DNA of 64,000 nucleotides from Patescibacteria group bacterium (GTDB lineage Bacteria; Patescibacteriota; Minisyncoccia; Phycocordibacterales; JAACPR01). A model generated the notes under the pieces. It worked only from the letters and a program-made list of their open reading frames with translations. It did no database searches and was not told where the DNA came from. The position numbers were made by a program, and so were the translations under genes. The DNA lies in NCBI GenBank assembly GCA_022711495.1, contig JAKLEX010000001.1, positions 370,171 to 434,170 on the forward strand, given 5' to 3'. Within the stretch, counting starts at the first letter, position 1. The number at the start of each line of letters is the position of its first letter. Shown here one piece after another: positions 25,801 through 63,160 of the stretch.

Positions 25801-26272
25801 CATTGGTCTTACTAAACTCAAACTCATAGAAATCTACACCGGCAGGTGGGGCATCAAAAGTCGCGCTACCACCGCTGGCGATAATTTTACCGCTATTATG
25901 GTCGAAAGCATCTTCTTCAACAATTGTAAAATTTCCGGAAATAGTCAGGGTATTCCCTGTCCCCGGAGCCGTGAACGTCCCTGTATATCCGGCCTGCATT
26001 GTCAGAGAGGCAATAGACCAGCTACCAGTAGAAGTGGCATCATTGGTACAAGACGAGGTGAAATAAACGGCATCGCTAGCACCCGGAACAGATGCGCCAC
26101 CGCTAACGCCGCAATCATTTGCCGCTGTTGACCAGTTAGCCGAATCCAAGACATCACCACCATCAGAGCCAACCCAGTAACGACTGGCCGCCTGACCAGT
26201 TTTGGCAAAAGCAAAAAGAAAAAGCGCGACCACTAGAAACTTAAATAGTTTTCTAAAGTTCATTATAAACAA
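22835..26272 (-). CDS. Large secreted repeat-containing surface protein (1145 aa; Thr/Gly/Asn-rich, likely beta-solenoid/adhesin-like)
   Basis: N-terminal signal peptide (MFIMNFRKLFKFLVVALFLFAFAKTGQAAS). About 3.5 copies of a ~229-aa repeat, two of them identical. Composition is typical of beta-helix adhesins. No LPXTG motif was seen. Confidence 0.7.
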   Translation of the reverse strand: MFIMNFRKLFKFLVVALFLFAFAKTGQAASRYWVGSDGGDVLDSANWSTAANDCGVSGGASVPGASDAVYFTSSCTNDATSTGSWSIASLTMQAGYTGTFTAPGTGNTLTISGNFTIVEEDAFDHNSGKIIASGGSATFDAPPAGVDFYEFEFSKTNGAYLVLATGDLFTVKATTTLTDGRFHSSGSMSTVKAEGPIVVNSTFDGVRSNFPAVNFLIDGEVDQSFNLPAGAYMPRTTLNNELTTITLTGSGTTTWPGATGYGLYIQNGTVDLNGVNAVFTGGFSQSGGTFIGGSGTIRAGGTFEITGGSFTNSTAPNESLNSLTISSGTFLAPSDLLTLTGSLIVSDDGFFDHNNGKVIISGATNAAFTTDDTVEFYEFEFNKDNNVQLTLANNYPFIVNATTTLTNGRFYKISAGDATFNAEGPVVVNSTFDGVNTSYYRVNFLIDGEVDQSFNLPAGAYMPRTTLNNELTTITLTGSGTTTWPGATGYGLYIQNGTVDLNGVNAVFTGGFSQSGGTFIGGSGTIRAGGTFEITGGSFTNSTAPNESLNSLTISSGTFLAPSDLLTLTGSLIVSDDGFFDHNNGKVIISGATNAAFTTDDTVEFYEFEFNKDNNVQLTLANNYPFIVNATTTLTNGRFYKISAGDATFNAEGPVVVNSTFDGVNTTYYKIGFLIDGGEAQSVNIAAGAYMPKTTLNNESATITLTGSGTVTWLKALAGYGLNLSTGVVDLNGVNATFNGGFSQSGGTLRLTGAETVTGSVTMNTGSTVEYSGSDTLTINPAWSYQNLNIIATTTPTTATFTAGSTYTVAGTTTMSGSDESNLLMLRSSTPDTQWSIDPQGVRAITYVDVQDSNNINVLVIETTGLDSGNNINWDITSISTGNLIATTVGRHVTAIDPGDADVALDGAFVFYKESGTDTIEEITLTQFGTLEPEYIDDVQLNYVLETGTSSSVCPESSAEVESFDEDSPFGVAVDLDDASGTAEFSDSVEIPEGQVLCVYPEYSLQEEMGEYDSVGKTIKLGLDGTSSVVLADEHETTFLRDPLSVWGSTVLSQVGISTITFVKDDVETVFYVEGGVLYIQEGNGEPRRLTSRDVQVQYASFRNLTPVGSDRGQVEIILRLEHTGPNYVGSPVVQTFKTTINVGY
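24278..25624. repeat. Perfect tandem duplication inside the surface-protein gene: two ~660 bp copies with 687 bp period (229 codons)
   Basis: Nucleotide stretches starting near 24283 and 24970 are identical for about 660 bp. The two identical antisense ORF-track entries 24555..24791 and 25242..25478 are offset by exactly 687 nt. Boundaries are approximate. Confidence 0.85.
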
Positions 26273-37685: not shown

Positions 37686-39200
37686 ATGGAAACGAAATCA
37701 GAACAAAACTTGATAGAAAGACCTCCTGTCGTTGTCATAATGGGCCATATTGATCATGGCAAATCTACCCTATTAGACTTCATTAGAAAATCAAACATCG
37801 TAGCCAAAGAAGCTGGCGGAATCACTCAACATCTCGGCGCTTACGAAATTGAACACAAAAATTCCGACGGTGCTATTAAAAAAATCACCTTTCTGGACAC
37901 GCCCGGACACGCGGCTTTTGTCGGCGTTAGAAGTCGCGGAGCGAAAGTGGCGGATATCGCCGTTTTAATCGTTTCGGCCGAGGACGGTGTGATGCCCCAA
38001 ACATTAGAAGCTCTGGAATGTATCAAAAAAGACAATGTTCCCTATATCATTGCCATTAATAAAATCGATTCGCCAAGAGCAAGTGTAGATAAAGTCAAAA
38101 GTGATCTGATTGAAAACAACATCTATATTGAGGGCTATGGCGGAGACATTCCAGCAGTTGAAATTTCTGCCAAAACCGGAAAAAACGTTGATTATTTGCT
38201 TGATTTGATTTTGGTCGCCTCAGAAGTCGCCGGATTAAGGGCCGATCCAAAGATTGGTGCCGAGGGATTCGTCATTGAGGCGCATAAGGACAAAAACAAG
38301 GGTATTTCGGCAACTTTAGTCATCAAGAGCGGTACCTTAAATCAAGGCCAATTTATCGCTTGTCAGGAAACTTATTCTCCTGTCAGAATTTTTGAAGACC
38401 ATAACGGCAAAGCCCTGAAAACAGCAACGTTTTCCCAACCAATCAAAATCAGCGGTTGGAATGCTTTTCCGATGGTCGGAGAGATATTCAAAACTTTCAA
38501 GGACAAAAAGAGTGCTGAAAAATATTGCGAAGAAATAACGGAAAAAAATGCCGAAAAAATTAAAACCGTTGCGGTGGCAAAAACAGAAGAAGACATCTTC
38601 ACTATCCCGATTATCATCAAGGCCGACACCCACGGCTCTATTGAAGCCGTTGAGTTTGAGCTTAAAAAAATAGTCACTAAAAATTCGCGGATTGAAATTG
38701 TCTCTACCGGCACGGGTAATATAACTGAAAAGGACATTAAGGTCGCCAGCGGAAATGAAAATTCTATCGTTTTAGGATTTGGTATTGATATGGACACTCA
38801 AGCGGAAATCATGAGTCGCCGGCTTAATACTTCAGTGCAAACTTTCAAGGTAATTTACGATTTAATTGATTGGATTGAAAAAGAAATAGAAAATAAGAGA
38901 CCAAGAATTGAAGTTGATGAGGTTACCGGCAAAGCTAAGATTTTAAAAAAGTTCAACGAGAGTAAAAGTAATCAGGTACTAGGTGGACGCGTTTTACAAG
39001 GCCGAATGAAAATAAGCAATAATGTAAAAATACTTCGCCGCGGAGAAGAAATCGGCCGAGGAAAAATCAAGGAGCTGCAAAACCAAAAGGCCAAGGTTTC
39101 CGAGGTAGCTGAAGGATCAGAATTCGGTCTTTGTATTGAATCAAGAATTGAAATCGTTCCGGGCGATGAAATAGAGATTTTTGAAAAAGTTGAGAAGTAA
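37686..39200 (+). CDS. infB: Translation initiation factor IF-2 (compact form without long N-terminal domains)
   Basis: G domain begins almost at the N-terminus (VVVIMGHIDHGKSTLLD, DTPGHAAF, NKID). Followed by the beta-barrel domains. Confidence 0.9.
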   Translation: METKSEQNLIERPPVVVIMGHIDHGKSTLLDFIRKSNIVAKEAGGITQHLGAYEIEHKNSDGAIKKITFLDTPGHAAFVGVRSRGAKVADIAVLIVSAEDGVMPQTLEALECIKKDNVPYIIAINKIDSPRASVDKVKSDLIENNIYIEGYGGDIPAVEISAKTGKNVDYLLDLILVASEVAGLRADPKIGAEGFVIEAHKDKNKGISATLVIKSGTLNQGQFIACQETYSPVRIFEDHNGKALKTATFSQPIKISGWNAFPMVGEIFKTFKDKKSAEKYCEEITEKNAEKIKTVAVAKTEEDIFTIPIIIKADTHGSIEAVEFELKKIVTKNSRIEIVSTGTGNITEKDIKVASGNENSIVLGFGIDMDTQAEIMSRRLNTSVQTFKVIYDLIDWIEKEIENKRPRIEVDEVTGKAKILKKFNESKSNQVLGGRVLQGRMKISNNVKILRRGEEIGRGKIKELQNQKAKVSEVAEGSEFGLCIESRIEIVPGDEIEIFEKVEK

Positions 39201-39202: not shown

Positions 39203-39535
39203 ATGGTTGAGCATCCTTACAGAAAAGAAAAGATCTTAGAAATTATCAGCCGAGCAGCGGCGGAATTTATTGAAAAAGAATCAAATCGAAAATCTTTGAT
39301 CACCGTCACAAAAGTGGAGCTCTCTACTGACTTCCAAAAAGCTATAATTTTTGTTACAGTTTTCCCAGACCAGGATGAAGAAGCGGCGGTGAATTTCTTA
39401 AAAAGAAATCTGAACGAGTTCCGGGATTTCATCAAGGAAAAGACCCGTCTTCAACAAGTTCCCTGGTTTGATTTTGAGATAGATAAAGGAGAGAAAAAAC
39501 GTCAGAGAATTGAAGAGATTTCTACGGAAATCTGA
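39203..39535 (+). CDS. rbfA: Ribosome-binding factor A
   Basis: KH-like RbfA pattern (…ITVTKVELSTDFQKAIIFVTV…). Sits directly after infB. Ends in a TGA stop. Confidence 0.85.
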   Translation: MVEHPYRKEKILEIISRAAAEFIEKESNRKSLITVTKVELSTDFQKAIIFVTVFPDQDEEAAVNFLKRNLNEFRDFIKEKTRLQQVPWFDFEIDKGEKKRQRIEEISTEI

Positions 39536-39538
39536 GAT

Positions 39539-39610
39539 GGCGTGGTGGCGAAGTGGAAACGCTGCGGTCTGCAAAACCGCCATGCGCGGGTTCGATTCCC
39601 GCCCACGCCT
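39539..39610 (+). tRNA. tRNA-Cys (anticodon GCA)
   Basis: Acceptor GGCGTGG/CCACGCC, anticodon loop CTGCAAA, T arm GCGGGTTCGATTCCCGC. Begins 3 nt after the rbfA stop. Confidence 0.8.
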
Positions 39611-39661
39611 CAATAATGTTTAAACTCCCGCGCGGGAGCCGGAACATTAGAAAAAAAATAA

Positions 39662-39743
39662 GCTCGGGTGGCGGAATTGGTATACGCGCACGACTTAAAA
39701 TCGTGTCTCGCAAGGGATGCGGGTTCGACCCCCGCCCCGAGCA
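39662..39743 (+). tRNA. tRNA-Leu (anticodon TAA), type II
   Basis: Acceptor GCTCGGG/CCCGAGC, anticodon stem CACGA/TCGTG with loop CTTAAAA, long variable arm, T arm GCGGGTTCGACCCCCGC. Confidence 0.8.
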
Positions 39744-39781
39744 CAATAAAGACGAAATTATTGAGCCGTTTTTATTGAAAC

Positions 39782-39854
39782 CCGCCCATAGCTCAGTTGG
39801 TAGAGCAGTCGCCTCTTAAGCGATTGGTCGTAGGTTCGAGTCCTACTGGGCGGA
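39782..39854 (+). tRNA. tRNA-Lys (anticodon CTT)
   Basis: D arm TAGCTCAGTTGGTAGAGC, anticodon loop CTCTTAA, T arm GTAGGTTCGAGTCCTAC. Acceptor CCGCCCA/TGGGCGG gives a C1-G72 pair, so the 5' end may be off by one. Confidence 0.7.
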
Positions 39855-39919
39855 CAAAGAAAATAATGATAGGTCAGATGCGTTAACACACGGCAAGTTT
39901 ATCTCCGTCGGTTAGCCAG

Positions 39920-41209
39920 TTAGATGGAATACCTAACAACTACAATACCCGAGCCACCATTTCCGCCATTTTGTGTATACCCACCTCCTCCTCCGCCACC
40001 GCCAGTATTTGACTCACCGTTTGAAACTTCGGCTCCATCATACTGGCCACCCTGGCCACCGCCGCCCAAACCGCCATCACCATATTCAACCGTATTTGAA
40101 TCTGTACCACCGCCTCCGCCACCGCCATAATAAGTGGCTACACCGGTAATGCTAGAGGAGATTCCATCTCCACCGTCTCCTCCACCGGCATCATATAGAG
40201 CAGAGTCGCCTATTTCTCCAGCGCCTCCTCCCCCTCCGCCAGAGCCTATGCCAGGGGCGGAGTTACCACTTCCGCCATCATTTCCTTGCGCCGGAGCAAC
40301 TTCTGGAGTATTACCCAACCCACCACTGCCGCTTGAATGAGCGCCCCCGCCACCAGAACCGCCATTGCCACCATCACTATCGCCATAGCCACCACCATAC
40401 CCTCCACCCGCGGCACTGGTTGTGTCAAAAAGACTTGCACTACCGGCATTTCCTCTGGCATCTTCAACTATCGCGCCAGCTCCTCCATCACCAATTGTTA
40501 CGGAATAGTCACCGGCATCTAGAGATTCACCATCTAATTCTATGACGCCGCCACCGCCGCCACCGCCAGCAGCATGTCTTCCTCCCCCGCCACCGCCACC
40601 AACAACCAAGATATCAGCAGTTAGAGTGGTAAGAGCGGTAAATGTATCATCGGAAGTAAATGTGTGGACACAGTACGAGCCGTCTTCGGTAACAGTTCCG
40701 CCAGTAGCATAATCGGCACAGGCATCCTCCCCTCCACCCTCTTCTTCAACCAATGAAGTTGAAGTTCCAATGACAACGCCGCCTAATCCTTGTTCTTTTG
40801 AACCTGGAGCAATCAGAGCCAGCTTATTGCCAGTCTGAAGAGCTATTTCGTAATTACCACCATTTGGATTTTCTGGTAGAGCTGAAAGATAAGTTGGAAC
40901 TAGCTCAGCTGAAAGATCAACGCAATCTGGTTCTACTGTATCACCACCGGTATCGCAGATTTCTTGGAGACTGCCATCTAATCCATCCGGCCAGTCTAGT
41001 TCGTCTATATAGTATTGTTGGACAGCTTTATGAATAGCATTTAAATCACTGGCTCTTTGAGCGTTTCTGGCTTGAGCTAGTTGTCTAGAAGGATTGATGG
41101 CCACGATAACGATCGCTGCCAAAATGGCGATAATGGCGATGACCAGAAGCATTTCCAGGAGAGTGAAACCTTTTTGAGTATTTCGTTTCGATAATTGAAA
41201 GAAAGACAT
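39920..41209 (-). CDS. Type IV pilin-like protein (class III signal/N-methylation motif) with very long glycine-rich C-terminal domain
   Basis: N-terminus MSFFQLSKRNTQKGFTLLEMLLVIAIIAILAAIVIVAI is the prepilin cleavage/methylation motif plus hydrophobic alpha1 helix. A ~120-aa pilin-like head is followed by ~270 aa dominated by poly-Gly tracts (GGGGGGG…), ending …GGSGIVVVRYSI. Confidence 0.7.
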   Translation of the reverse strand: MSFFQLSKRNTQKGFTLLEMLLVIAIIAILAAIVIVAINPSRQLAQARNAQRASDLNAIHKAVQQYYIDELDWPDGLDGSLQEICDTGGDTVEPDCVDLSAELVPTYLSALPENPNGGNYEIALQTGNKLALIAPGSKEQGLGGVVIGTSTSLVEEEGGGEDACADYATGGTVTEDGSYCVHTFTSDDTFTALTTLTADILVVGGGGGGGRHAAGGGGGGGVIELDGESLDAGDYSVTIGDGGAGAIVEDARGNAGSASLFDTTSAAGGGYGGGYGDSDGGNGGSGGGGAHSSGSGGLGNTPEVAPAQGNDGGSGNSAPGIGSGGGGGGAGEIGDSALYDAGGGDGGDGISSSITGVATYYGGGGGGGTDSNTVEYGDGGLGGGGQGGQYDGAEVSNGESNTGGGGGGGGYTQNGGNGGSGIVVVRYSI

Positions 41210-41361
41210 ATAGATAACTTATTGTTATGAACCGACTTATAAAGTTTGATGTAGATATTATACTATGGGGAGAAAAAAAATAAAGTAAGTATTGTGAGTC
41301 TATTTTTGGGTTTGAATTTAGCGGTTGTTCGTGTAATATTAATAACAGGTAAATTTGTAAA

Positions 41362-41444
41362 GCGCGGGTGGCGGAATTGGCAGACGCACTTGCCTTAGGA
41401 GCAAGCGAGGTTCCCTCGTGGAGGTTCAAGTCCTCTCCCGCGCA
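41362..41444 (+). tRNA. tRNA-Leu (anticodon TAG), type II
   Basis: Acceptor GCGCGGG/CCCGCGC, anticodon stem CTTGC/GCAAG with loop CTTAGGA, variable arm CGAGGTTCCCTCGTG, T arm GGAGGTTCAAGTCCTCT. Confidence 0.8.
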
Positions 41445-41520
41445 CAAATAAACAAAGAACGTCAGCTCAAGGGCGAGCCGGCGTTTTTTGTTTTTGTGGT
41501 ATTTCTATCTGGTGCCGTAG

Positions 41521-41551
41521 TTGACAAACCGACATTATTCGTGATATAATT
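41521..41551 (+). promoter_or_regulatory. Consensus sigma70-type promoter (TTGACA, 18-nt spacer, TATAAT) upstream of the GC-rich cassette; RBS AAGGAGAAGG precedes the ATG at 41616
   Basis: Sequence gTTGACAaaccgacattattcgtgaTATAATtc read directly. Perfect -35 and -10 hexamers. Confidence 0.5.
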
Positions 41552-41615
41552 CATGCAGATTCAGAGACCCGAGCTTTAAAAGCTCAAAACAACAGTACAT
41601 TGAAAGGAGAAGGTT

Positions 41616-42707
41616 ATGAACGTCATTGGAGCTTGGATGATTGCGGGATGCATTGGAATTCTGGCGATTTTTTCGGCCCTCGTGGGCGTCGTCAAGGTTA
41701 AGGAAAATAAGCCAGTGGAACAACTGTCGCGCTGGACCTGGTTTGTCCTGTCGCGGTTGTTTGTTGGTGCCCTCGCCTATGCGGCGACCATCAATATTCT
41801 GGCAACTTTTTCCGATTCAGATCCAAACTGGGCTTGGTATTTCGGTGGGATCTTGGTCGGCCTAAGCGTTTTCGCCCTGATGATCGAATTGACGCACAAG
41901 TCTGCGCTCTTTCGATTGGCAGGTAATAAATTCGCGCTGGCCACCGATATCTTCTTTGGACGAAGGGCAACTTTCATCCGTGAAGATATGGATTGTGCCA
42001 TTCGGACTTACCGGATCTATCTCGGTGGTCTGAATGCCAAGTTCGACTGGGAGATCGTTGAAATCGTCGACGAATTCAATCGTGATGTGATCGACACGAT
42101 CTCCTCAACGGTAGAATTCGAAGACTCGCCGGGGCTACTCTCTGGTAAGTATACGCTAAGACCCGATCCGGAGAGATTGCAGTACTTCGCTGCGACGAAT
42201 GTCGATACCGCAAAAAGAGATGCTCTCCTAAAGGAGGCTTTTGGCGGCTACGTAAGAATGTACTTGAGTGATTTTCTCAAGACAAAAAAAATCGACGGGG
42301 CCATGGCCACTAAGGGCACCCTGTTCGACGAACTCCCTGAATCTGTCAAAACAGAGCTCCGACGCCAGGAAGAAAAGTACGGGGTCAAGTTAAACACCCG
42401 TATCATCGACAACATTGACTATCCGCCAGAACTGGCGAAGGTCAATGAGCAAATATCGGTGATGGCGCGGATACGAGAGATGGTTAACTTCCAGCTAGAG
42501 AGCTGGGGTAAGACCAAGGAGCAGATCGAGGGTAAGGCTGATCGGGGAAATGTCACGCCCGAAGAGCGGAAAGAAGCGGAAAGACTGGTGTTGGCGATTA
42601 CCGAACAGGTTCCGGAAAGGACACTTCGGCACATCATCGATGGGCGTCTCGACAGCAAAACGGCTGGCAAGATTATCCTGGGCATCAATAGCGGAAAGGA
42701 GGAATGA
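41616..42707 (+). CDS. Polytopic membrane protein with C-terminal SPFH/band-7-like region (tentative); GC-rich, probably horizontally acquired
   Basis: Three N-terminal hydrophobic helices. The C-terminal segment …GVKLNTRIIDNIDYPPELAKVNEQISVMARIREMV resembles the SPFH core (…GI.V..V.I.DI..P.EV..AM…). Codon composition is visibly GC-richer than the flanking genome. Confidence 0.45.
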   Translation: MNVIGAWMIAGCIGILAIFSALVGVVKVKENKPVEQLSRWTWFVLSRLFVGALAYAATINILATFSDSDPNWAWYFGGILVGLSVFALMIELTHKSALFRLAGNKFALATDIFFGRRATFIREDMDCAIRTYRIYLGGLNAKFDWEIVEIVDEFNRDVIDTISSTVEFEDSPGLLSGKYTLRPDPERLQYFAATNVDTAKRDALLKEAFGGYVRMYLSDFLKTKKIDGAMATKGTLFDELPESVKTELRRQEEKYGVKLNTRIIDNIDYPPELAKVNEQISVMARIREMVNFQLESWGKTKEQIEGKADRGNVTPEERKEAERLVLAITEQVPERTLRHIIDGRLDSKTAGKIILGINSGKEE

Positions 42708-43279
42708 TTATGGTCGAGCCTACCATTCGTAGCGTTGATAAGCGGACGATCCGTCTTTTCGTCTGGGCACCCCTCGGAGTGATCTTGGCGATAGTCGTCC
42801 TGATCACCGGCTATGTCCATCGGAGAGAAATCTCCGAGTGGATAACCGAGCTTGCTCGGGAAAAAACGGAGACGCGGCAACCTGTGGCAACACAGCCAGT
42901 CGCGCCTCAAAACCAGACGTCAGTCCCCCACCTGCGAGTCTACAACCTCGTACCGGGCGGAGACCACGTTTCGGTTCTATTCCGTGATTCCGAGAACGAT
43001 GCCCTCGCCTGGTACGGCGATGGCGGTTGTTACCAGGTTCGATACATTAAGCAAGACGGAATGACCTGGAACGCACCGGGCTGTATGCCGGGTGGTTGGA
43101 TCTGGGCAATCCCAGGAATCCATTGGCAAACGGTTTACCAATGGATTGGGGAACCGCTGGCCATACAGTTCAGGGTTCCGGCAACCAGGATAGAAAAGTC
43201 CTGGGGACGCAGGGTTGAGAAACCCTGCGCGCCAGTGACGCTTCACGTATCGCTGAAACCGATACGAGATCCGTCCTGA
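42704..43279 (+). CDS. Hypothetical membrane-anchored protein (1 TM plus Trp/Gly/Cys-rich ~140-aa domain), translationally coupled to the upstream gene
   Basis: ATGA overlap with the preceding ORF. TM helix FVWAPLGVILAIVVLITGYV. No recognisable family. GC-rich like its partner. Confidence 0.45.
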   Translation: MIMVEPTIRSVDKRTIRLFVWAPLGVILAIVVLITGYVHRREISEWITELAREKTETRQPVATQPVAPQNQTSVPHLRVYNLVPGGDHVSVLFRDSENDALAWYGDGGCYQVRYIKQDGMTWNAPGCMPGGWIWAIPGIHWQTVYQWIGEPLAIQFRVPATRIEKSWGRRVEKPCAPVTLHVSLKPIRDPS

Positions 43280-43302
43280 CAACAAAACGACAAGTAGTAA
43301 CC

Positions 43303-43338
43303 CAAAAGGCTCCGAGAGAGATTCCCGGAGCCTTTTTT
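43303..43338. terminator. Rho-independent terminator (bidirectional hairpin between the convergent cassette and pilin-array operons)
   Basis: aaaaGGCTCCGagagagattcCCGGAGCCtttttt: GC stem flanked by an A-tract and a T-tract. Confidence 0.7.
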
Positions 43339-43411
43339 ATTTTGACCCTACTTCAATCTGTGGAGAGTGAGTTATGAGACTATCAAATCTCCCGCCCTAA
43401 TTTTATCCGTC

Positions 43412-43657
43412 TTATCCGTAAATTGTATCCAGGGCCAATTTGATTATGCCGAAAACCGATACCATGATCAGCATTCCGATGAGCCCCCAGATTATGTGGC
43501 GGCGACCAGTTTCTCGAGCTTCTGGATTGCTAGCGCCCTTGATATAGTTGAAAATTCCCCACAAGAAAACAACCAGGGCTACGGCAAAAAGCAACCTTAT
43601 CAAGGGGTTAACAATAACAGAGGCGATCTTTGACAGAAAACTGTCTACTGACGACAT
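43412..43657 (-). CDS. VirB2/TrbC-like (T4SS-pilin-like) small two-helix membrane protein, paralog 1 of 6
   Basis: 81 aa. Hydrophobic helix, then …FLWGIFNYIKGASNPEARETGRRHIIWGLIGMLIMVSVFG…, the two-TM hairpin with charged loop shared by all six paralogs. Confidence 0.6.
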   Translation of the reverse strand: MSSVDSFLSKIASVIVNPLIRLLFAVALVVFLWGIFNYIKGASNPEARETGRRHIIWGLIGMLIMVSVFGIIKLALDTIYG

Positions 43658-43689
43658 AGAAGTATTTTAAGACTATTCCCAATTCTACT

Positions 43690-44028
43690 TTAGTTTGGAA
43701 TACCAGGAACATTAATTCCGCTTGTTCCGCCAGCATCAATATCCAAGGTGTCGCTTAGTAATTCAACCAATCCCCAGACAGAAACCATGACGAATAGAAC
43801 AATAATTCCGTAAATCATCACGTATCTGGCCTCCTTTCTCTTGTCATCATCCGTGGCAATAATGTATTGCAAAATTCCCCAGATGAAAACGATGACGGCG
43901 ATACCAATAACCAAAGGAATAAGAGCATCAATAATTGACTTGATCTTATCAATCACCCCTTCTATTCCGCTGGCCGCCAAAGCGACTACTGGAAACAAAG
44001 AAACCGCTAAACCTGAAATATATTTCAT
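43690..44028 (-). CDS. VirB2/TrbC-like (T4SS-pilin-like) small membrane protein, paralog 2 of 6 (with signal peptide)
   Basis: Signal peptide MKYISGLAVSLFPVVALAAS. Core …FIWGILQYIIATDDDKRKEARYVMIYGIIVLFVMVSVWGLVELL. Confidence 0.6.
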   Translation of the reverse strand: MKYISGLAVSLFPVVALAASGIEGVIDKIKSIIDALIPLVIGIAVIVFIWGILQYIIATDDDKRKEARYVMIYGIIVLFVMVSVWGLVELLSDTLDIDAGGTSGINVPGIPN

Positions 44029-44135
44029 AATTATAATCTTTAAATTTAAAAACTATTAATTAAACGATTAATAGCTATACGAGTATTATACATCAAAAGC
44101 CCAGTTAAAAACACAAGGTCCTGTGGATTTAAAAA

Positions 44136-44399
44136 CTAATAGGTAATCTGCGGAATACCGAAATTAAAGCCAAAACTATTGCTTAACATCTGGAGAATTC
44201 CCCAGACAGAAGTCATGACAAATAGCCCAATTATTCCGGCTATAATATAAGAAATGCTCTCTTTTCTCTTGTTTTCATCGTCAGAATTGAAGATATAAGC
44301 TATCAGGCCGTAAACAAAGACAAATAGAGATAGCGCGATAATGACCGTCACGATCTTGTTGCTGTAAGTTATAAGACGATTTATTAGTGTCGCGAACAT
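44136..44399 (-). CDS. VirB2/TrbC-like (T4SS-pilin-like) small membrane protein, paralog 3 of 6
   Basis: Core …FVYGLIAYIFNSDDENKRKESISYIIAGIIGLFVMTSVWGILQML. Confidence 0.6.
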   Translation of the reverse strand: MFATLINRLITYSNKIVTVIIALSLFVFVYGLIAYIFNSDDENKRKESISYIIAGIIGLFVMTSVWGILQMLSNSFGFNFGIPQITY

Positions 44400-44404
44400 G
44401 TTTA

Positions 44405-44710
44405 TTATTTTAATATTAAATTTTGTACTGATTGAGTTTGTGAGTTGGTAATATTGGCATCAGTAATACCCAGAGTTCCCTTCACCAGGGCGACCAAACC
44501 CCAAACAGAGACCATGACGAACAAAGTTATCAGCCCAAAGATTATGACCTTGGTTGAACTTTGTCGACTCTCCGCGTCTTTTGATACAACATATTTGAAA
44601 ATCCCATATATAAAAGCTAAAGTCGCAATGCTAATCAACAGACCCATCAAGCCAGATGAGCCGCCGCTACCGGAAAGAAAATTGATGATTTTACTTAATA
44701 GATTGTCCAT
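44405..44710 (-). CDS. VirB2/TrbC-like (T4SS-pilin-like) small membrane protein, paralog 4 of 6
   Basis: Core …FIYGIFKYVVSKDAESRQSSTKVIIFGLITLFVMVSVWGLVALV. Confidence 0.6.
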   Translation of the reverse strand: MDNLLSKIINFLSGSGGSSGLMGLLISIATLAFIYGIFKYVVSKDAESRQSSTKVIIFGLITLFVMVSVWGLVALVKGTLGITDANITNSQTQSVQNLILK

Positions 44711-44716
44711 GTGTTT

Positions 44717-45103
44717 TTAACTTTGGAGACCCTCAACTCCCAATTCCCCGGCGGTTTCTATGATGATATTGCTGATGGCCTGTGCGCCCAACAATACAAT
44801 CGCGCCAATAACCGTCCAGAAAAAGACGCTTTTGGCTTTTCTGATTGCCTCTTCGTTGCCCTGCGCGGTGACGAATAAGAATCCGGCGTAAATTATGGCC
44901 AAGACCACAAAGATGGCGCCAACTTTGGCGAAGACGCCTAGAATAACTCCCACTAGTTGTTGTAAGCTGCCAACTTTTGAGATCGGGTTTTGCAAACCGC
45001 TACTGCCGGCCGGGGTCTGAACACTACCATCTTGAGCGAGAACAATGCTCGGTAACAATCCCGAGACAAAAGTCGTAAGCGAATATTTTAAGTATCTGAA
45101 CAT
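44717..45103 (-). CDS. VirB2/TrbC-like (T4SS-pilin-like) membrane protein, paralog 5 of 6 (longer, with signal peptide)
   Basis: Signal peptide MFRYLKYSLTTFVSGLLPSIVLA. Core …LAIIYAGFLFVTAQGNEEAIRKAKSVFFWTVIGAIVLLGAQAISNIII matches the Gram-positive/CPR T4SS-pilin consensus as I recall it (…GGFQYITSAGD..K…A…IGLV…). The ORF track starts at 45154; I trimmed to the internal Met. Confidence 0.6.
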   Translation of the reverse strand: MFRYLKYSLTTFVSGLLPSIVLAQDGSVQTPAGSSGLQNPISKVGSLQQLVGVILGVFAKVGAIFVVLAIIYAGFLFVTAQGNEEAIRKAKSVFFWTVIGAIVLLGAQAISNIIIETAGELGVEGLQS

Positions 45104-45116
45104 GTTAATGGTTTTA

Positions 45117-45506
45117 TTATCTAATAAATTTGTTATACAGCGACACGATATCACCTTTCAAGCCAAACGCGGCGGCGATTAAATCAACAATCAAGAAACT
45201 GCCAACGGCTAGTAGAAAGCCTATTAGTATGTTTGAGAAAACCGAATGAGCCTTTGAGATTTTGCCCGAATCGCCGCCAGCCGACAGATATAAAAATCCA
45301 GCCCAAGCAAAGCCGATGGCCGATAGAACCATTCCTAATTTCAGGACATAGGCGATAACATCGCGGATCATCTGCCCTAGAGCGTAAAAGTTACATTTTT
45401 CTGGATCAGTACATGGAACAAGGCCGGCCGAGGCGATGTTCACCCAAAAAATAAACAACGCCAGGACAAATGTGGAGGCCAAAACTGTTTTTAAAAGCGA
45501 TTTCAT
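45117..45506 (-). CDS. VirB2/TrbC-like (T4SS-pilin-like) membrane protein, paralog 6 of 6 (with signal peptide and Cys pair)
   Basis: Signal peptide, then a CTDPEKC pair. Core …SAIGFAWAGFLYLSAGGDSGKISKAHSVFSNILIGFLLAVGSFLIV. Confidence 0.6.
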   Translation of the reverse strand: MKSLLKTVLASTFVLALFIFWVNIASAGLVPCTDPEKCNFYALGQMIRDVIAYVLKLGMVLSAIGFAWAGFLYLSAGGDSGKISKAHSVFSNILIGFLLAVGSFLIVDLIAAAFGLKGDIVSLYNKFIR

Positions 45507-46804
45507 TCAAATAAAGTTAATAGCTCGGCGCTGGCCCGGTCAACTGCGGCAGAAACATTCTGAAAACCAGACACCACTGATTCTATCATCTTTTTAAAGA
45601 TATTGTCAGTCTCTTCCCTATCTGGATCAAGAAAGATTTTTGATATTAGGGCCGAGCGGCGGAAAACATCCATATATGAAAGTGACGAGAAATTTTCATC
45701 AATATCTCGGCGAACCGGCGCGATTTGTAGAACGTTTGAAAGTATCTTAATGGCTTCCGGACTAGTTATCTTGACTAGGGTTGTGAAGGCATTAGAGATG
45801 TTCTGTGACCGACTTAAAATGGCGGCAAATTGCATCTTGCCGATCGTTGAATTGGCTATGCTTGACCTTGATTGAGGCAAGACGGAAACATCAAAATTTA
45901 GATTCGGATTTTTTTGTAATAATTGTCTCCTTTCATCGGCAAAACCGAAGTAAAAAGCTAAATCGCCAGCAATGAAAGCTTCCTCTGAATTTGGCATGGC
46001 CTTATTCCAAGAATAGACATCTTTTGTCGGATTGGAGAATTGGGCATAGAAATTAAGCGCCGTGTCGGCTGGCCGCAAGGTAAAACCAAACTGATCAGAA
46101 AGGGCCGAATAATATTTCTTCTTAACCGGATCGCGGAAAATCACATTATTGCCGGCCTGTTGAATCAAAGAGAGCAAAATGTCTTTGGCGGATTTGATGT
46201 TATCGTACTCGCCGAAAGCGACGGCCGAGCGGCTAATGTTACCTTTTGAATCTTTCTTGACGATCCTCGGAACCAAAGAAAGAAAATCATCCCAATATTT
46301 TGGAGAAGCGGTAATGCCTTCGTTGTTTAAAATTGTTCGATTCCAATACAAAACAAGCGGATTTATGGCAATCGGGAATCCTAAAAGTCCATCTTCGCGC
46401 AACAAGACCTCAGACGCCTCTATAAAATTATCTTTGAATTGCTTTTGGGTGTAATAGTCATAGCCGATCAAAAATAGTTTATTTTCGTGCTTCAAGAGCG
46501 TGTCATCGGTCAAAAAGACCGCGTCCGGCGCCGTATCCGACGCCAGGGCCTCTATCAATTCCTGTTCAAAAACACCCTCGTCAAATTCCTGATAGATGAT
46601 ATTGACTGAATTTTTCTCCAGAGAATTCATCTCTTCTTGAAATTGGGCGATGGCTTCCGCCGGTAAAGTTCCCCAGATTTTCACCGGCGCCGACACTTGC
46701 TGATTTTTACTTTTTTGGGCAGCAAAGACAATTACGCCGGCGACAATTATCACGACCATGACTCCCAACAAAATTATTTGAAACAAAGAAAGTTTTTTAT
46801 TCAT
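45503..46804 (-). CDS. Membrane-anchored extracellular solute-binding-fold protein (ABC-type SBP family 1-like), no cognate permease or ATPase nearby
   Basis: N-terminal TM anchor, then …VKIWGTLPAE…NSVNIIYQEF…LASDTAPDAVFLTDD… resembling sugar-type SBPs. ATGA-type overlaps with both the upstream methyltransferase and the downstream pilin paralog 6. Confidence 0.55.
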   Translation of the reverse strand: MNKKLSLFQIILLGVMVVIIVAGVIVFAAQKSKNQQVSAPVKIWGTLPAEAIAQFQEEMNSLEKNSVNIIYQEFDEGVFEQELIEALASDTAPDAVFLTDDTLLKHENKLFLIGYDYYTQKQFKDNFIEASEVLLREDGLLGFPIAINPLVLYWNRTILNNEGITASPKYWDDFLSLVPRIVKKDSKGNISRSAVAFGEYDNIKSAKDILLSLIQQAGNNVIFRDPVKKKYYSALSDQFGFTLRPADTALNFYAQFSNPTKDVYSWNKAMPNSEEAFIAGDLAFYFGFADERRQLLQKNPNLNFDVSVLPQSRSSIANSTIGKMQFAAILSRSQNISNAFTTLVKITSPEAIKILSNVLQIAPVRRDIDENFSSLSYMDVFRRSALISKIFLDPDREETDNIFKKMIESVVSGFQNVSAAVDRASAELLTLFE

Positions 46805-47331
46805 GAGGTTCTAAATATCATTCCATAATGGTGATCGCCAACTTTAATATCTCTGTCAAATTTGAATCCGGCGTTTTCAAACATCGTTCTGGCCACGTCG
46901 GGTCTTATAACCACATCGGGGCTGGGGCCGATTCCGCCGAATGAGTCCGTCCAATCTATAACCAAAATTTTTCCGCTTTTTGGATTAAGAATTCTTTTGG
47001 CTTCGGCCACGAAGGATTCTGGCTTTTCCAATTGAAACAAAGTATTGACGACAACCGCCCGATCAACGGAGAAATCTCGCAAAGTTGTTCCTTTCAATTC
47101 GTCTAAATCGCCCCAAATTATTTCAACGTTGTGTAGACCGCGGTTTTCAGCTTCGGTTTTAAGCTTATTTAACAAGTCTTTCTGGACATCAACGGAATAG
47201 ACTTTCCCACCCGGGCCAACTTTTTCCGATAATATAAAAGTATAAAAACCCGTGCCTGATCCAAGGTCGGCCACGGTCATTCCAGGATCAATATGAAATT
47301 GTTCTAGATTTGTTGCCGGATCTGAAAACAT
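46801..47331 (-). CDS. Small class I SAM-dependent methyltransferase (176 aa)
   Basis: Motif I VADLGSGTGFYT with an acidic residue after beta2 (VYSVDVQ). First gene of the pilin-array operon. Confidence 0.7.
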   Translation of the reverse strand: MFSDPATNLEQFHIDPGMTVADLGSGTGFYTFILSEKVGPGGKVYSVDVQKDLLNKLKTEAENRGLHNVEIIWGDLDELKGTTLRDFSVDRAVVVNTLFQLEKPESFVAEAKRILNPKSGKILVIDWTDSFGGIGPSPDVVIRPDVARTMFENAGFKFDRDIKVGDHHYGMIFRTS

Positions 47332-47430: not shown

Positions 47431-49914
47431 TTACAAAGTCACAAGCGAAGCAATATTATCACCGGCACGCAATTTCATGACTCTAACTCCTTGAGTCTGG
47501 CGACCGAGGATTGGTATTTCATCCACATCAACTCGGATAACCTGGCCCTTTTTGGACATAGCCACGATTTCGTCAGTGAGTTCCGTGACAACAGCGGCGG
47601 AAATGATTTTTCCGATTTTATCGGTGACTTTCGCCGTTTTTATTCCGGATCCGCCACGTTTTTGAACTTTATATTCTTCAAGCGGGGTCTGTTTGGCAAA
47701 ACCATTCTGTGAAAAGACCAAAAGATTATTATTTTTTTCTTGCTTACTGACAGTTAGAGAAACCACGACCCGGTCCTTAGGAGAAATCTTTATGCCACGA
47801 ACACCAGCCGCGCCCCTACCCATTTCTCGAATATCTGATTCTTTGAATCGAATTGACTGACCGAGATTCGTCACGACAACCACCGTATCGTCTTTGGCTA
47901 CAAAGTGTGCCGAGATCAACTTGTCATCGCCCTTAAGCTTGATAGCGATAATACCGCTGCGTCTGACATCCGCGAAACTTTCGGCGTCAACTTTTTTGGT
48001 CACGCCCTGCCCCGTCATCATCATAACGGAAAGACTTGGCATCTTCTTTAATTCTTTCGGCACGGCTAAGACGGAAGTGATCTTCTCTTCCGGAGAGATA
48101 GACAAAAAGTTCATGATAGATTTTCCTTTGGTGGCGCGCTTTCCTTCCGGTAGATCATACATTTTGATTTGATAAACCTTTCCTTTGTCAGTGAAGAATA
48201 ATAAATCGCTGTGAGTTGTCGTATATATTAGAGTGTTAACAAAATCTTCTTCTTTAGTGTCCAAATCAATGACTCCGACGCCGCCACGTCTTTGTTTACG
48301 ATATTCATCGGGATTGGTTCGTTTGATATAGCCGCCGTTCGTCATAACCAAAACGCTTTCTTCATCAGGGACAATGTCTTCCATAGAAATGTTCTTTACG
48401 CCCCCGGCAATTATTTTTGTCTGTCGCTCATCGGCGTACTTTTGCCTGATATCTGACAATTCTTTTTTAATTAAATTACGCATTTTGGCCTCGCTCTTTA
48501 GCAGGGCTTCCAGTTCGGCGATTAATTTCTCAACCTGCAACAACTCGTCTTCAATCTTCTTTCGTTCAAGACCGGCCAGTCTCTGAAGTTTCATCTCCAA
48601 TATGGCCGTGGCTTGAAGTTCGCTGAACTTAAACTTGCTCATCAAGTTGGCGTGAGCCGTAGGGGTGTCTTTGGAGGCCTTAATCAATTTTATAATTTCA
48701 TCAATATGATCAAGGGCCTTTTTTAGACCAAGCAAGATATGCTCGCGCGCTTTGGCTTTGGCCAGATCAAATTTTGTTCGACGAGTGACGACTTCAAAAC
48801 GATGCGCGATAAATTCGTCTAAAATAGACTTGAGACCGAGAGTCTGAGGCACGCCGTCAACTAGCGCCACCATGTTGTAGTGAAAGGCTTCTTCAAGTTG
48901 AGTGTGCTTGTAAATGTAGTTGAGAATACTTTGTGGATGAGCGTTTGATTTTACGTCAATGACGACCCTGATTTCGTCGGTTGATTCATCGCGCAAACCT
49001 TTTATGCCCTCAACCTTCTTCTGCGAATGCAGTTCGGCGATTTTAGCGATAAGATCGGATTTGTTAACTCTATAAGGTATAGAAGTAATAATGATCTGGC
49101 TGTTTCCGCTCTTATCCTCAACGATTTCAGCTTCTCCTCGGCAAACTACTCCGCCACGTCCAGAAGCGTATGCGGTGTAAATATCTTTTTTATCAAAAGC
49201 CAATCCGCCCGTTGGAAAATCCGGCCCCTTAACAAATTGCAACAATTCTTCAGTGCTAGCTTTCGGGTTATCAATCAAATGAACAGTGGCATCAATTATT
49301 TCGCCCAAATTATGTGGCGGAATATTCGTGGCCATACCGACCGCGATTCCCAGAGTTCCGTTCAATAAAAGATTCGGAACGTTTGAAGGTAAAACAACCG
49401 GTTCCTTTTTGGTCGCGTCAAAGTTTTGGCGAAAATTAACTGTATCTTTTTCCAAATCGCTTAGTAGCTCTTCGGAAAGTTTGCTCATCTTGGCCTCCGT
49501 ATAACGATAGGCAGCTGGCGGATCGCCGTCTATAGAACCAAAGTTACCTTGTCCGATAACCAACGGATAGCGCATGGAAAACGGCTGAGCCATTTTAACC
49601 ATGGCGTCATAAACAGCCACGTCGCCGTGCGGGTGATAGTTACCAATGACATCTCCAACTACCGTGGCCGATTTTTTAAATTTAGCGGTGGCAGTTAAAT
49701 TCATCCGGCTCATTGAAAATAGAATTCTTCGATGAACCGGCTTCAGACCATCGCGGACATCGGGAAGCGCCCGCATGGTGATAACCGACATGGCATAATC
49801 AAGATAAGACTTTTTTACTTCTTCGCTGATTGGAGAAATAATCGGCGGATTTGTTGAGCTAGCTGACGGATTAGGTTTGCTATCTTCGCTTTTCTTGTCG
49901 ATATTTTTTGCCAT
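47431..49914 (-). CDS. gyrA: DNA gyrase subunit A
   Basis: [27 protein letters not shown] with the active-site Tyr region. C-terminal beta-pinwheel repeats. Length 827 aa. Confidence 0.95.
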
Positions 49915-59644: not shown

Positions 59645-60658
59645 TCATGCCTCCCTTTCCACCCTGGTTCTATACTGCTGGGTATTTGTCAGGATCTCGG
59701 CGGTCGTATCGGCATAACGAAGCAGAATTTGAGCGGCTTCGCGAAATATCTGTTCCATGGCTGTCGTAGCCGGTCTTTTGTGCTTTTGGAAGTAACGATA
59801 TATCGTCGGGGTCAGCTGGAAATCCTCGAGTTTCATAACGAGAGCGCGAACTCGAGGAACCAAAGCCCGGAACGATTTATCATCATCGGAGGCTTTTTTC
59901 TCCCGCGGCGGTTTCTTCCCCCTCAACGACAGCCGCAAGAATTTCCCCTCGGAAATTAACCGGCGGAGCATCTCGTTGAGAACAACCGGGCTTGTCCCCT
60001 GCGCCCTCTCTTTCTCAATCTGCTGGAAAAGTTTCAACTGCTCGACCTCGGTCTTAAGCGTTGATAAACGCAAGGCCGCGGAAAAACTGATCCGATCCCT
60101 TTCAGGAGTCGGCGGATCAAGTTTCGCCAAAATGTCTGGGTGAAGTCTGGCCAGAGAAGTATAGTTGAGAACCCAACTTATCTTCTTGCCCACCGCCACG
60201 GCAATTTGATCGGCGGACATTAAGTTGGCCCGCAGAGCAATAACTGCTTTGATCTTTTCCTGGTGAGTGTGGTCAATCCGATTGAAGTTGGATATCAAAG
60301 ACAGCAGATGTTGCTGATTGAAGTCCTTTACCTGACAGATGATTATACGAATCGTCTTCAGGCCAGCCTGTTTAATGGCTCGCCAGCGCCTTTCACCGTC
60401 AATGAGTTCGTACTTCGCCCCATTGAGAGACTGCTGGAACTTTATGACCAAAACCGGCTGGGCTTGACCATTAGTTTTAATGCTTCCGGCCAAAGCCGTA
60501 AGTTCGTCCGGATCAAAATACATCCGCGGCTGATCCTTGAGCGGCGTAATTTCATCAACCGGCACCGTTAAAACCCGATTCTCCTCAACAACGAACCCGG
60601 CGTCAATCAACTGTTTCCGCGTCGCTTCCGACTTGTCCATCTGATTGCTATTTTTCAC
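59645..60658 (-). CDS. ParB/Srx-like nuclease-domain protein (337 aa) on a GC-richer islet
   Basis: ParB N-terminal-type motif …YELIDGERRWRAIKQAGLKTIRIII…, an HTH-like middle and an uncharacterised basic C-terminal domain. Visibly higher GC than neighbours. Confidence 0.55.
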   Translation of the reverse strand: MKNSNQMDKSEATRKQLIDAGFVVEENRVLTVPVDEITPLKDQPRMYFDPDELTALAGSIKTNGQAQPVLVIKFQQSLNGAKYELIDGERRWRAIKQAGLKTIRIIICQVKDFNQQHLLSLISNFNRIDHTHQEKIKAVIALRANLMSADQIAVAVGKKISWVLNYTSLARLHPDILAKLDPPTPERDRISFSAALRLSTLKTEVEQLKLFQQIEKERAQGTSPVVLNEMLRRLISEGKFLRLSLRGKKPPREKKASDDDKSFRALVPRVRALVMKLEDFQLTPTIYRYFQKHKRPATTAMEQIFREAAQILLRYADTTAEILTNTQQYRTRVEREA

Positions 60659-60775
60659 CTTAATTCTCCTCTTTGTTTTTCAAGAACTTCCTGCGCTATA
60701 AATTACACTTTTAATCGGAAAAAGCAACCAAGAAAAAACACCATCGCCGCGATGGTGTTTGCAACATAAGACTGT

Positions 60776-61189
60776 TCAAATCGTTTTGACTACCGCTGCC
60801 CTGGCAGTTTTGGCGGCCGTGGCGGTTTCCCTTGCCGCATCCAGATCCGCTTGAGCGCGGGCCATCAGATAAGCAGAGATAAGTTCGCGATGAGCCCAGA
60901 TAGTATCCTCAAACGCCCGGAGAAAGTGGCAGGGACAATTAATGACAGTTTGCTTGCCATCAACAGTTCCCCAGGAAACATACCCATCGGAATGGCAGAT
61001 GTATTTGTCGGGATTGACTGCCCGTTTCCTTTCCAGGTCGTCAAGCTCTCCCGGTTCCATATCCGGGCTGTCGTCGTAGTAATGAATTCTTCCGCACTGC
61101 TGACAATCAACCACCAAACTGCCCGATTCAGGAACCAATTCCTTGATCGTATCCGACGGTTGCCTTTTTGAAAAGACCTTCATCCTCAT
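60776..61189 (-). CDS. Hypothetical Cys-rich protein (putative zinc ribbon: CQQCG…CHSDG…CPCH), Ala-rich C-terminal helix
   Basis: ORF on the same GC-rich islet as the ParB-like gene. Cys and His spacing suggests metal binding. No family recognised. Confidence 0.4.
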   Translation of the reverse strand: MRMKVFSKRQPSDTIKELVPESGSLVVDCQQCGRIHYYDDSPDMEPGELDDLERKRAVNPDKYICHSDGYVSWGTVDGKQTVINCPCHFLRAFEDTIWAHRELISAYLMARAQADLDAARETATAAKTARAAVVKTI

Positions 61190-61255
61190 CTCCTTTGGTT
61201 AGAGTTTCACTGAAAGATCCTGCTAGGTTCTTATTATCAAATAAGAGTGGTGGTG

Positions 61256-62299: not shown

Positions 62300-62488
62300 T
62301 TTGATTTTAAGTCGATATTTTTTCAGAACCCCAAGAAAGGCCTTACGACGAGGACTTTATTATAGAAAATAATTAAAAAGTAATTTTATCGATCTTTGTG
62401 AGCCTAATCGAGATGGGGCCCTAACTCACTAAGCCCCGTAATAACATTATGAGACTGCTAATGAAAACGATTCGACCCTTCTCTAGCA

Positions 62489-62935: not shown

Positions 62936-62969
62936 AATACTTTTCGAGTGCTCGAACGGCGCTCGACAC

Positions 62970-62989
62970 TGTGACCCTACGCGGAATCG
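62970..62989. repeat. 20-nt direct repeat of the tRNA-Glu 3' end (tgtgaccctacgcggaatcg), second copy at 63159..63178; att-like scar
   Basis: Exact 20-nt match read from the sequence. The downstream copy is the last 18 nt of tRNA-Glu plus 2 flanking nt. Confidence 0.6.
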
Positions 62990-63156: not shown

Positions 63157-63160
63157 CGTG

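Follow-up and report, generated by a model that had tools for sequence, protein, structure and literature searches.

The 8 kb between rbfA and gyrA in a 64,000-nt stretch of contig JAKLEX010000001.1 from a Patescibacteria group bacterium (the window) belong to a conserved core block of Paceibacteria. The block reads infB-rbfA, four tRNA genes, a two-gene slot, a pilin array, an SBP (solute-binding protein)-like gene, a methyltransferase gene and gyrA, and more than 40 relatives preserve this arrangement. The slot, defined as the stretch between tRNA-Leu(UAG) and the last pilin of the VirB2-like array, holds two open reading frames (ORFs), ORF363 and ORF191, with conspicuously high guanine-plus-cytosine (GC) content. 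This anomaly is a conserved, lineage-wide property of a resident module and not a mark of recent import. Taken together, the region is probably best described as a core block rather than an island, containing a resident, fast-evolving, GC-rich pair built around a predicted SPFH-domain membrane protein, modified by one pilin gain and shaped by a local GC-raising process acting in situ. Atypical GC content beside a tRNA gene is routinely read as horizontal transfer; here, with the anomaly recurring at one fixed locus in dozens of species, that inference fails. Along the window, the order is rbfA, tRNA-Cys, tRNA-Leu(UAA), tRNA-Lys(CUU), a glycine-rich pilin gene, tRNA-Leu(UAG), ORF363/ORF191, six VirB2-like pilins, SBP, methyltransferase and gyrA (Table 1).

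The block was traced by scanning one genome per GTDB species with GyrA, which gave 80 loci at 64-91% GyrA identity. About 22 kb per locus was annotated by tblastn of the window proteins and by ARAGORN, and 32 of the 80 loci reach the tRNA cluster. A replication set was obtained by scanning metagenome contigs with RbfA (8 loci spanning the region), and a close-relative set, called here the four congeners, consists of the window and loci L010, L169 and L171, with L172 as a further locus beside L171. The order pth-S1-MBL-gyrA-methyltransferase-SBP, followed by 4-9 VirB2-like pilins, is near-universal in the GyrA-anchored loci. Beyond the pilins, tRNA-Leu(UAG), tRNA-Lys, tRNA-Leu(UAA), tRNA-Cys, rbfA, infB, DUF4446, an aminotransferase gene and clpB are present in 32 of the 32 loci that reach that far; 23 of these have the exact orientation of the window, and the other nine carry local tRNA inversions. 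The same arrangement appears in the 8 RbfA-anchored metagenome loci and in the congener loci L169-L172. Because they are syntenic, the tRNA cluster, the pilin array, the SBP gene and the methyltransferase gene are core genes of the class. Presence/absence polymorphism is seen only in the spacer between tRNA-Lys and tRNA-Leu(UAG) and in some other inter-tRNA gaps, not in the pilin array, the SBP gene or the methyltransferase gene.

The first-pass annotation had taken these 8 kb for a variable surface or host-interaction island rather than core genome, and had named identical gene order in relatives, compared from rbfA to gyrA, as the observation that would count against an island. That comparison shows conserved order in the 32 genome and 8 metagenome loci, with tRNAs, pilins, SBP and methyltransferase as core, and conserved synteny thus removes most of the island by the annotation's own standard. 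What the block contains, namely tRNAs, an SPFH pair, a VirB2-like array, an SBP gene and a methyltransferase gene, points to a set of genes for the surface or host interface with no earlier description as a unit.

The slot itself varies in length from 58 bp to 4.9 kb and measures at least 1.8 kb (pilins to first tRNA) in 24 of 32 loci. Its usual content is two co-oriented genes in the same orientation as ORF363 and ORF191. The compositional anomaly was examined by computing GC by codon position for 66 non-overlapping window ORFs. GC is 0.49-0.56 between 39.5 and 43.5 kb, as compared to a window mean of 0.42, and ORF363 and ORF191 have third-position GC (GC3) values of 0.60 (z +2.7) and 0.615 (z +2.95), respectively. 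In relatives, slot genes (68 genes from 37 loci) lie above the other ORFs of their locus in GC3 in 87% of cases and are the top-ranking genes in 57%, with a median z of 2.65. Slot GC3 follows host GC3 locus by locus with a slope of 1.02, an intercept of +0.12 and r 0.72; the difference is positive in 33 of 37 loci (Wilcoxon p 1.6e-8, where the p-value overstates independence since the loci are phylogenetically related). A slope close to 1 argues against arbitrary or random donors. Across 44 loci, the mean shifts of slot genes are +0.023 at first, +0.041 at second and +0.127 at third codon positions, first- and third-position shifts are correlated (r 0.73), and 40 of the 44 loci show a GC3 excess. 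The excess is reproduced in the metagenome loci (for example, host 0.175 versus slot 0.44-0.51 in L124) and is found in all four congeners. The remainder of the block behaves differently: pilins, SBP, methyltransferase, gyrA, infB and rbfA deviate by only -0.019 to +0.018 from the locus mean, versus +0.13 for the slot pair. As a separate observation, the mean GC3 of the window is about 0.43, versus about 0.21-0.23 in its closest sequenced relative, L010 (GyrA 91%), which is a large genome-wide shift.

The slot pair is also among the fastest-evolving genes of the block. Among the four congeners, amino-acid identity is 81-86% for infB, 75-91% for rbfA and 55-72% for the terminal pilin, but falls to 33-43% for the SPFH protein and to 25-34% for the partner at the ORF191 position. 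The window is the outgroup among the four for every gene compared, and slot divergence is therefore fast but roughly tree-like. When the window is compared with L010 at the nucleotide level, identity amounts to 0.78-0.81 in rbfA and the tRNAs, 0.41-0.52 within the slot and 0.64-0.66 in the first pilin. At larger distances, slot-protein identity no longer follows GyrA identity (rho -0.06), in contrast to SBP identity (rho 0.74). This decoupling is compatible with either saturation or exchange.

ORF363 is, as judged from a structure model and its relatives, a divergent SPFH-domain membrane protein with the SPFH alpha/beta fold and a long helix. Its sequence is close to an orphan: it alone was recovered from 5.8e9 proteins, the NCBI annotation is hypothetical protein of a Candidatus Paceibacterota MAG, and a phmmer search of 1.84 billion representatives yielded nine relatives at 21-35% identity. 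An AlphaFold (AF2) model built with those nine relatives as the alignment has a predicted local distance difference test (pLDDT) score of 67, rising to 70-88 over residues 150-330. When the model was compared by Foldseek, the 17 best PDB matches were all prohibitin, stomatin, HflK/C or flotillin (probability 0.99-1.00, E 1e-5 to 9e-3). Three hydrophobic helices within residues 1-94 form the predicted membrane anchor. Genes at the ORF363 position in relatives point the same way, with a Pfam Band_7 match in 21 of 34 (best 8e-13) and no other recurring family. A hidden Markov model (HMM) of the ORF363 family matches the proteins of L010 (2e-152) and L011 (9e-11), and the latter also matches Band_7 at 5e-5. 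One of the nine relatives, the congener homologue P0003 in the genome of L006, lies between tRNA-Leu(UAG) and the pilins and carries a precomputed Band_7 match. Profile-profile comparison (hhalign) among slot occupants gave moderate support, with probabilities of 30-84%, the highest against cluster 1. When the slot proteins were searched iteratively with an HMM started from ORF363, the family did not grow. As a candidate, a defence system was rejected: PADLOC returned no match for the SPFH/partner pairs of the window, L010, L071 and L022, for the pilin or for the SBP.

ORF191, whose start overlaps the ORF363 stop, has one predicted transmembrane (TM) helix and no Pfam or NCBIfam match. Among 5.8e9 proteins, only ORF191 itself and its L010 counterpart were recovered. 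Its AF2 model has a pLDDT of 57, and Foldseek gave no meaningful fold match. The genes at this position in relatives share a membrane location, as all 33 encode at least one predicted TM helix (1-6). The pair as a whole resembles known prokaryotic SPFH systems (stomatin, prohibitin, flotillin and HflKC; PMC2636767; PMC4208085) in that ORF363 combines an N-terminal membrane anchor with an SPFH fold that is followed by a long helix, and is translationally coupled to a membrane protein in a two-gene operon. It differs in that ORF363 is so divergent that Pfam misses it. The operon logic is also that of SPFH-NfeD operons, but the partner is not NfeD, as none of the 33 ORF191-position proteins matches the NfeD Pfam families. 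In the papers found on SPFH operons, neither the extreme rate nor the lineage-wide GC3 excess of the pair is described, and our literature search turned up no paper linking SPFH proteins with Patescibacteria or reporting a conserved GC-rich hypervariable slot.

The pair has the signals of a self-contained transcription unit. The putative sigma-70 promoter upstream of ORF363 ranks first among the sites of the 10.6 kb covered by the promoter scan, and the same 12/12 site with the TG extension stands upstream of the L010 homologue. On the other side, the hairpin that separates the convergent SPFH and pilin operons is a likely bidirectional terminator.

Several explanations of the GC-rich pair were weighed against a resident module. 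The first-pass annotation had described compositionally foreign DNA at an integration hotspot, and its strongest form, in which the cassette and the glycine-rich pilin were recently imported at a tRNA integration site and the entire 8 kb form a variable surface island, is very improbable. The outlying GC3 of ORF363 and ORF191, their near-orphan status, the adjacency of the cassette to tRNA-Leu(UAG), the absence of the glycine-rich pilin from this spacer in all relatives and the presence of selfish LAGLIDADG genes between these tRNAs in relatives would each be expected from such an import. However, positional homologues with the same GC3 excess occur in most relatives, among them the other three congeners, where divergence is roughly tree-like, and the slope near 1 against host GC3 is not expected of random donors. 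The GC3 of the pilin is low, its high GC reflects amino-acid composition, and the tRNA cluster and pilin array are syntenic core genome. No integrase, transposase or recombinase family was matched among the ORFs of at least 81 aa scanned with Pfam and NCBIfam at 39.2-47.3 kb, and repeat and k-mer searches at the pilin insertion and at the slot revealed no att-type direct repeats or duplicated tRNA fragments. The cassette had no tblastn match in 50,697 phage records, no blastn match in 72,556 plasmids and only a marginal match, to a TM segment, in PHROGs, and it drew no PADLOC match. The region resembles tRNA-associated genomic islands in that variable DNA adjoins or lies between tRNA genes and the spacers of relatives hold different small cargo, including homing-endonuclease-like genes. 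It departs from them in lacking an integrase, a duplicated tRNA 3' end and flanking direct repeats, in having single-gene inserts of 0.3-3 kb, and in consisting mostly of core genes. Import of the cassette is thus largely refuted: its GC3 anomaly is real but recurs in most relatives, and the high GC of the pilin, which stems from glycine and alanine codons, is no evidence of foreign origin either. The hotspot claim survives in reduced form, as small gene gain in the tRNA-Lys/tRNA-Leu(UAG) spacer. Another reading, in which a mobile SPFH-plus-partner cassette with its own promoter, terminator and higher GC repeatedly refills the slot among related Paceibacteria, with integration either in trans or through homologous recombination at the conserved tRNA and pilin flanks, also strikes us as unlikely. 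It would account for the self-contained transcription unit, the decoupling from GyrA identity at larger distances, the widely differing partner families and sizes, and the sharp drop of nucleotide identity at the slot edges; yet the four congeners diverge in a tree-like manner, the slope near 1 would require exchange restricted to compositionally similar hosts, and the searches turned up neither cassette-end motifs nor an integrase, nor any copy in viral or plasmid records.

Selection on codon usage or messenger-RNA properties in a very highly expressed operon is a different kind of explanation, and one to which we give little weight. High expression would fit the putative promoter, which in both the window and L010 matches the consensus fully and has an extended -10, the TG-extended -10 motifs that recur ahead of the slot genes of roughly half the relatives, and an excess that is greatest at third positions. 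In contrast, GC is also raised at first and second positions, in step with the third, and infB, S1, clpB and gyrA, which are expected to be well expressed, show no comparable excess. Promoter scores upstream of slot genes are no better than those of a gyrA-upstream control, and an excess of +0.2 to +0.35 exceeds by far the usual effects of translational selection. A diversity-generating retroelement target was rejected as a candidate: there is no long near-identical repeat pair within 39-48 kb and no reverse transcriptase domain match.

The reading of a resident, in situ GC-enriched SPFH module has observations of its own to contend with. The slot is empty or rearranged in 8 of 32 loci, loci L055-L059 and L082 show no GC3 excess, and the intergenic DNA of the slot is only slightly richer in GC, by a non-significant +0.04 (p 0.11). 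The identity of all 13 same-species contigs over the locus lends no support to ongoing exchange. Pfam gives no Band_7 (PF01145) match at E<=0.01 for ORF363, which has no other Pfam or NCBIfam match either, so that its SPFH assignment depends on a medium-confidence model and on relatives. Thirteen of the 34 genes at its position have no Band_7 match either, and homology of all slot occupants is only partly shown. For the partners, which share no family, belonging to the same module is a statement about position. The same-species comparison is based on exact-sequence look-ups of ORF363 and of rbfA, which returned 13 contigs each from several digester metagenomes with identical gene order. Exact-protein look-ups revealed no strain-level variants of the locus, and the RbfA metagenome scan gave only relatives at most 54% identical.

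These data allow a tentative mechanism to be outlined for the resident pair. The SPFH protein would assemble into an oligomeric scaffold that surrounds its variable partner in the membrane, and the pair would be functionally tied to the adjacent VirB2-like filament genes, a tie that would explain their conserved adjacency. We infer this role from the class-wide adjacency, the general role of SPFH proteins and one report (PMC8656257) in which components of type IV secretion systems (T4SS) reside in SPFH-containing membrane fractions. The pair would be under diversifying pressure at the cell surface, and the persistent GC excess would come from a local process acting in situ, not from foreign origin. 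GC-biased gene conversion at an often-recombining locus is our leading, unproven guess for the cause of that excess. Patescibacteria are naturally competent (PMC10633639), and another study (PMC4450053) reports raised GC3 in recombining bacterial genes, for which biased gene conversion is the hypothesis offered. The slot resembles such recombination-associated enrichment because its GC rise is local and strongest at synonymous sites in an AT-rich background. It differs in that here the enrichment is confined to a single gene pair and conserved across the class, and the fast-evolving neighbouring pilins have no excess. If the GC excess is driven by recombination, it would allow recombination hotspots of uncultured, AT-rich lineages to be recognized from sequence alone. 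A bolder extension, which we hold to be possible but doubtful, is that Paceibacteria maintain a diversification slot here: a hyper-evolving SPFH-partner module, coupled to the pilin array, that would serve as a cell-surface or host-interface component in these ultrasmall episymbionts, its GC enrichment being the footprint of high local homologous exchange with GC-biased repair.

Table 1. Features of the rbfA-gyrA region (window coordinates)
Feature	Position	Strand	Basis or remark
rbfA, last protein gene of the DUF4446-infB-rbfA unit	39203..39535	+	TIGR00082 4.5e-14; syntenic in relatives
tRNA-Cys(GCA)	39539..39611	+	ARAGORN, Rfam
tRNA-Leu(UAA)	39662..39744	+	ARAGORN, Rfam; position conserved in relatives
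tRNA-Lys(CUU)	39782..39855	+	ARAGORN, Rfam; position conserved in relatives
Species-specific insertion, ~1.4 kb versus the 95-bp L010 spacer	39860..41282 (boundaries approximate)		Spacer alignment
Glycine-rich type IV pilin-like gene, 429 aa	39920..41209	-	Prepilin N-terminus and Gly_rich_2 C-terminal domain
Ancestral spacer upstream of tRNA-Leu(UAG)	41283..41361	+	Aligns with L010 spacer; contains the conserved GTGTAATAT motif
tRNA-Leu(UAG)	41362..41445	+	ARAGORN, Rfam; borders the slot in relatives
Putative sigma-70 promoter, TTGACA-18 nt-TATAAT with TG (TGn-TATAAT)	41521..41550	+	12/12 consensus matches
ORF363, predicted divergent SPFH/Band-7 membrane protein, 3 N-terminal TM helices	41616..42707	+	AF2/Foldseek and relatives
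ORF191, predicted single-pass membrane protein, beta-rich ectodomain	42704..43279	+	Start overlaps ORF363 stop by 4 nt
Hairpin, 14-bp stem, 5-nt loop, 93% complementary (inverted repeat I19)	43304..43336		Between convergent SPFH and pilin operons
Six VirB2-like paralogs (PF18895 T4SS_pilin), array 43412-45506	43412-43657, 43690-44028, 44136-44399, 44405-44710, 44717-45154, 45117-45506	-	Pfam and tblastn
SBP-like gene, membrane-anchored	45503..46804	-	SBP_bac_1 4.9e-11; syntenic in nearly all relatives
S-adenosylmethionine-dependent methyltransferase, 176 aa	46801..47331	-	NCBIfam and Pfam methyltransferase matches; syntenic in relatives
gyrA, synteny anchor	47431..49914	-	80 loci, 64-91% identity

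The glycine-rich pilin is the only recent gain in this genome, and its location is species-specific. The gene is absent from the tRNA cluster and slot of every relative in the genome and metagenome scans and from L169-L172. The tRNA-Lys/tRNA-Leu(UAG) spacer measures 15-270 bp in most relatives and, among the congeners, 95 bp in L010 and 72 bp in L169, both empty, 336 bp in L171 and L172 and 1506 bp in the window. The ~80 nt that directly precede tRNA-Leu(UAG) can be aligned with the spacer of L010, from which the remainder is missing. The flanks of the insertion share no repeats of at least 8 nt, and 11-mers of tRNA-Lys and tRNA-Leu(UAG) were found at no other place in the region. In L171 and L172, the spacer holds a 90-aa ORF that is unrelated to the pilin (L171 1269-1541, L172 804-1076; it starts MYRKPYTIEEIKKNYPDKARS). 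The pilin has matches to Pfam N_methyl (PF07963, 6.9e-9), Gly_rich_2 (2.4e-20) and TIGR02532 (1.8e-8), and carries a prepilin-type N-terminal motif followed by a hydrophobic helix, as in a type IV pilin or pseudopilin; the sequence there is KGFTLLEMLLVIAIIAILAAIV. With the six-ORF PF18895 array, it makes up the two kinds of pilin-like genes that the first-pass annotation had recognized. Its GC is 0.505 (GC1 0.64, GC2 0.55, GC3 0.326, z -1.7); this richness is due to glycine and alanine codons and is uninformative on origin.

The pilin is one member of a very large family in Paceibacteria that combines a conserved pilin head of ~150 aa with interchangeable C-terminal domains (Gly_rich_2, LamG), and a paralog, presumably encoded in the same genome, is 84% identical in its N-terminal part. 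It resembles the modular type IV pilins of the candidate phyla radiation (CPR), as described in Saccharibacteria (bioRxiv 10.1101/2024.11.25.624915), in its prepilin N-terminus (G|FTLLE), its multi-paralog family and its swapped C-terminal domains. It differs in having no pilus assembly genes nearby, in a C-terminal domain that strongly resembles a phage family, and in a tRNA-cluster location unique to the species. The C-terminal domain (window 39920-40900) matches phage family phrog_2295 at 2.8e-58, with residues 103-429 aligned to positions 521-848 of the 1183-position profile, and the glycine-rich domain may be shared with viral fibre-like proteins. A search of the pilin against the phage collection gave no match, as the low-complexity filter probably masks the glycine-rich part. 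The gene also contains GGN-rich internal repeats (families D1-D6), and independent short-read assemblies break within it (L004 1-357; the end of L168, Logan SRR5007150). The 13 same-species contigs differ only in gene-call starts and in such breaks within this gene, which are assembly fragility and not evidence of structural variation.

In more distant relatives, this spacer or neighbouring inter-tRNA spacers hold genes for LAGLIDADG-type homing endonucleases, methyltransferases, OMP decarboxylase or a vault-protein-like protein. The free-standing LAGLIDADG_3 ORFs form one BLAST cluster (L047 19286-19930, L049 17565-18386, L064 19469-20104 and L072 19638-20366), with a LAGLIDADG_3 match of about 1e-8 in L047 and L049. 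They lie between tRNA-Leu(UAG) and tRNA-Lys in L047, L049 and L064 and in the tRNA-Cys/rbfA gap in L072. Within the tRNA cluster of L054 (18139-21153), a 1004-aa protein carries Major Vault Protein (MVP) domains (MVP_shoulder 3.5e-18, Vault_3 1e-8). The shoulder of MVP has an SPFH-like fold, too.

The four tRNA genes score 55-73 bits in Rfam, versus a gathering score of 29. ARAGORN, Rfam and the coordinates all bear out the first-pass count of four tRNAs with tRNA-Cys 3 nt past the rbfA stop, a TGA at 39533-39535. The rbfA/tRNA-Cys gap is exactly 3 nt in L169, L171 and L172, 6 nt in L010 and 1-170 nt in most loci. Because a 3-nt junction is too short for a promoter, co-transcription of tRNA-Cys with infB-rbfA, as the first-pass annotation had suggested, is plausible, and its conservation in the congeners is in keeping with this. 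The last 400 nt of the infB-rbfA operon contain no promoter-like site. The three rbfA-proximal tRNAs would be released by processing from the infB-rbfA read-through transcript, and tRNA-Leu(UAG) would be served by its own promoter through a conserved -10-like motif. The motif in question, GTGTAATAT, is also present in L171 and may be an extended -10 element of a putative promoter. In L082 (12537-12610), ARAGORN calls a tRNA with anticodon UUA ("tRNA-Stop") in the place that tRNA-Lys(CUU) takes in relatives; this may be a suppressor or recoding tRNA, or else a miscall.

The VirB2-like array consists of six small ORFs with two TM segments each. Four score above the PF18895 gathering threshold of 26.6 (33.1, 36.1, 28.8 and 27.8 bits), one reaches 21.4 bits and one has no Pfam match; all six are linked as paralogs by tblastn, with mutual identities of 30-42%. 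Arrays of 4-9 copies stand at the same place in relatives. Known CPR arrays (PF18895/PF04956) comprise 2-11 genes at ~25% identity (bioRxiv 10.1101/2025.01.22.634366), and a series of VirB2-like pilins is essential in Ca. Southlakia epibionticum (PMC10633639). The window array shares with these the tandem arrangement, the small two-TM paralogs and the low mutual identity. Unlike the arrays stressed in that preprint, which lie near virB4 and in Microgenomates and Saccharibacteria, it is not next to virB4 and keeps a fixed place downstream of gyrA-methyltransferase-SBP throughout Paceibacteria. The window ORFs scanned include neither VirB4 nor any other T4SS gene, and the other large ORFs among them are housekeeping genes. 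The SBP gene is joined by start/stop overlaps to the methyltransferase gene upstream and to the first pilin downstream.

Three further observations concern other parts of the window. The window IF-2 (37686-39200) is only 504 aa long; it aligns to positions 79-581 of the 587-position TIGR00487 and has no N-terminal extension of the kind present in many bacteria. A 1145-aa ORF at 22835-26272 on the minus strand lies among housekeeping genes and has no significant Pfam domain and an unusually high GC2 of 0.475. A second compositionally patchy spot, at 59645-63940, adjoins tRNA-Glu and tRNA-Ser (63160-63383). A DHQ-synthase gene (61256-62299, GC3 0.33) and an ORF at 62489-63004 (0.27) are GC3-poor there; a ParB_N-like gene (59645-60658, 0.59) and ORFs at 60776-61189 (0.54) and 63467-63940 (0.60) are GC3-rich.

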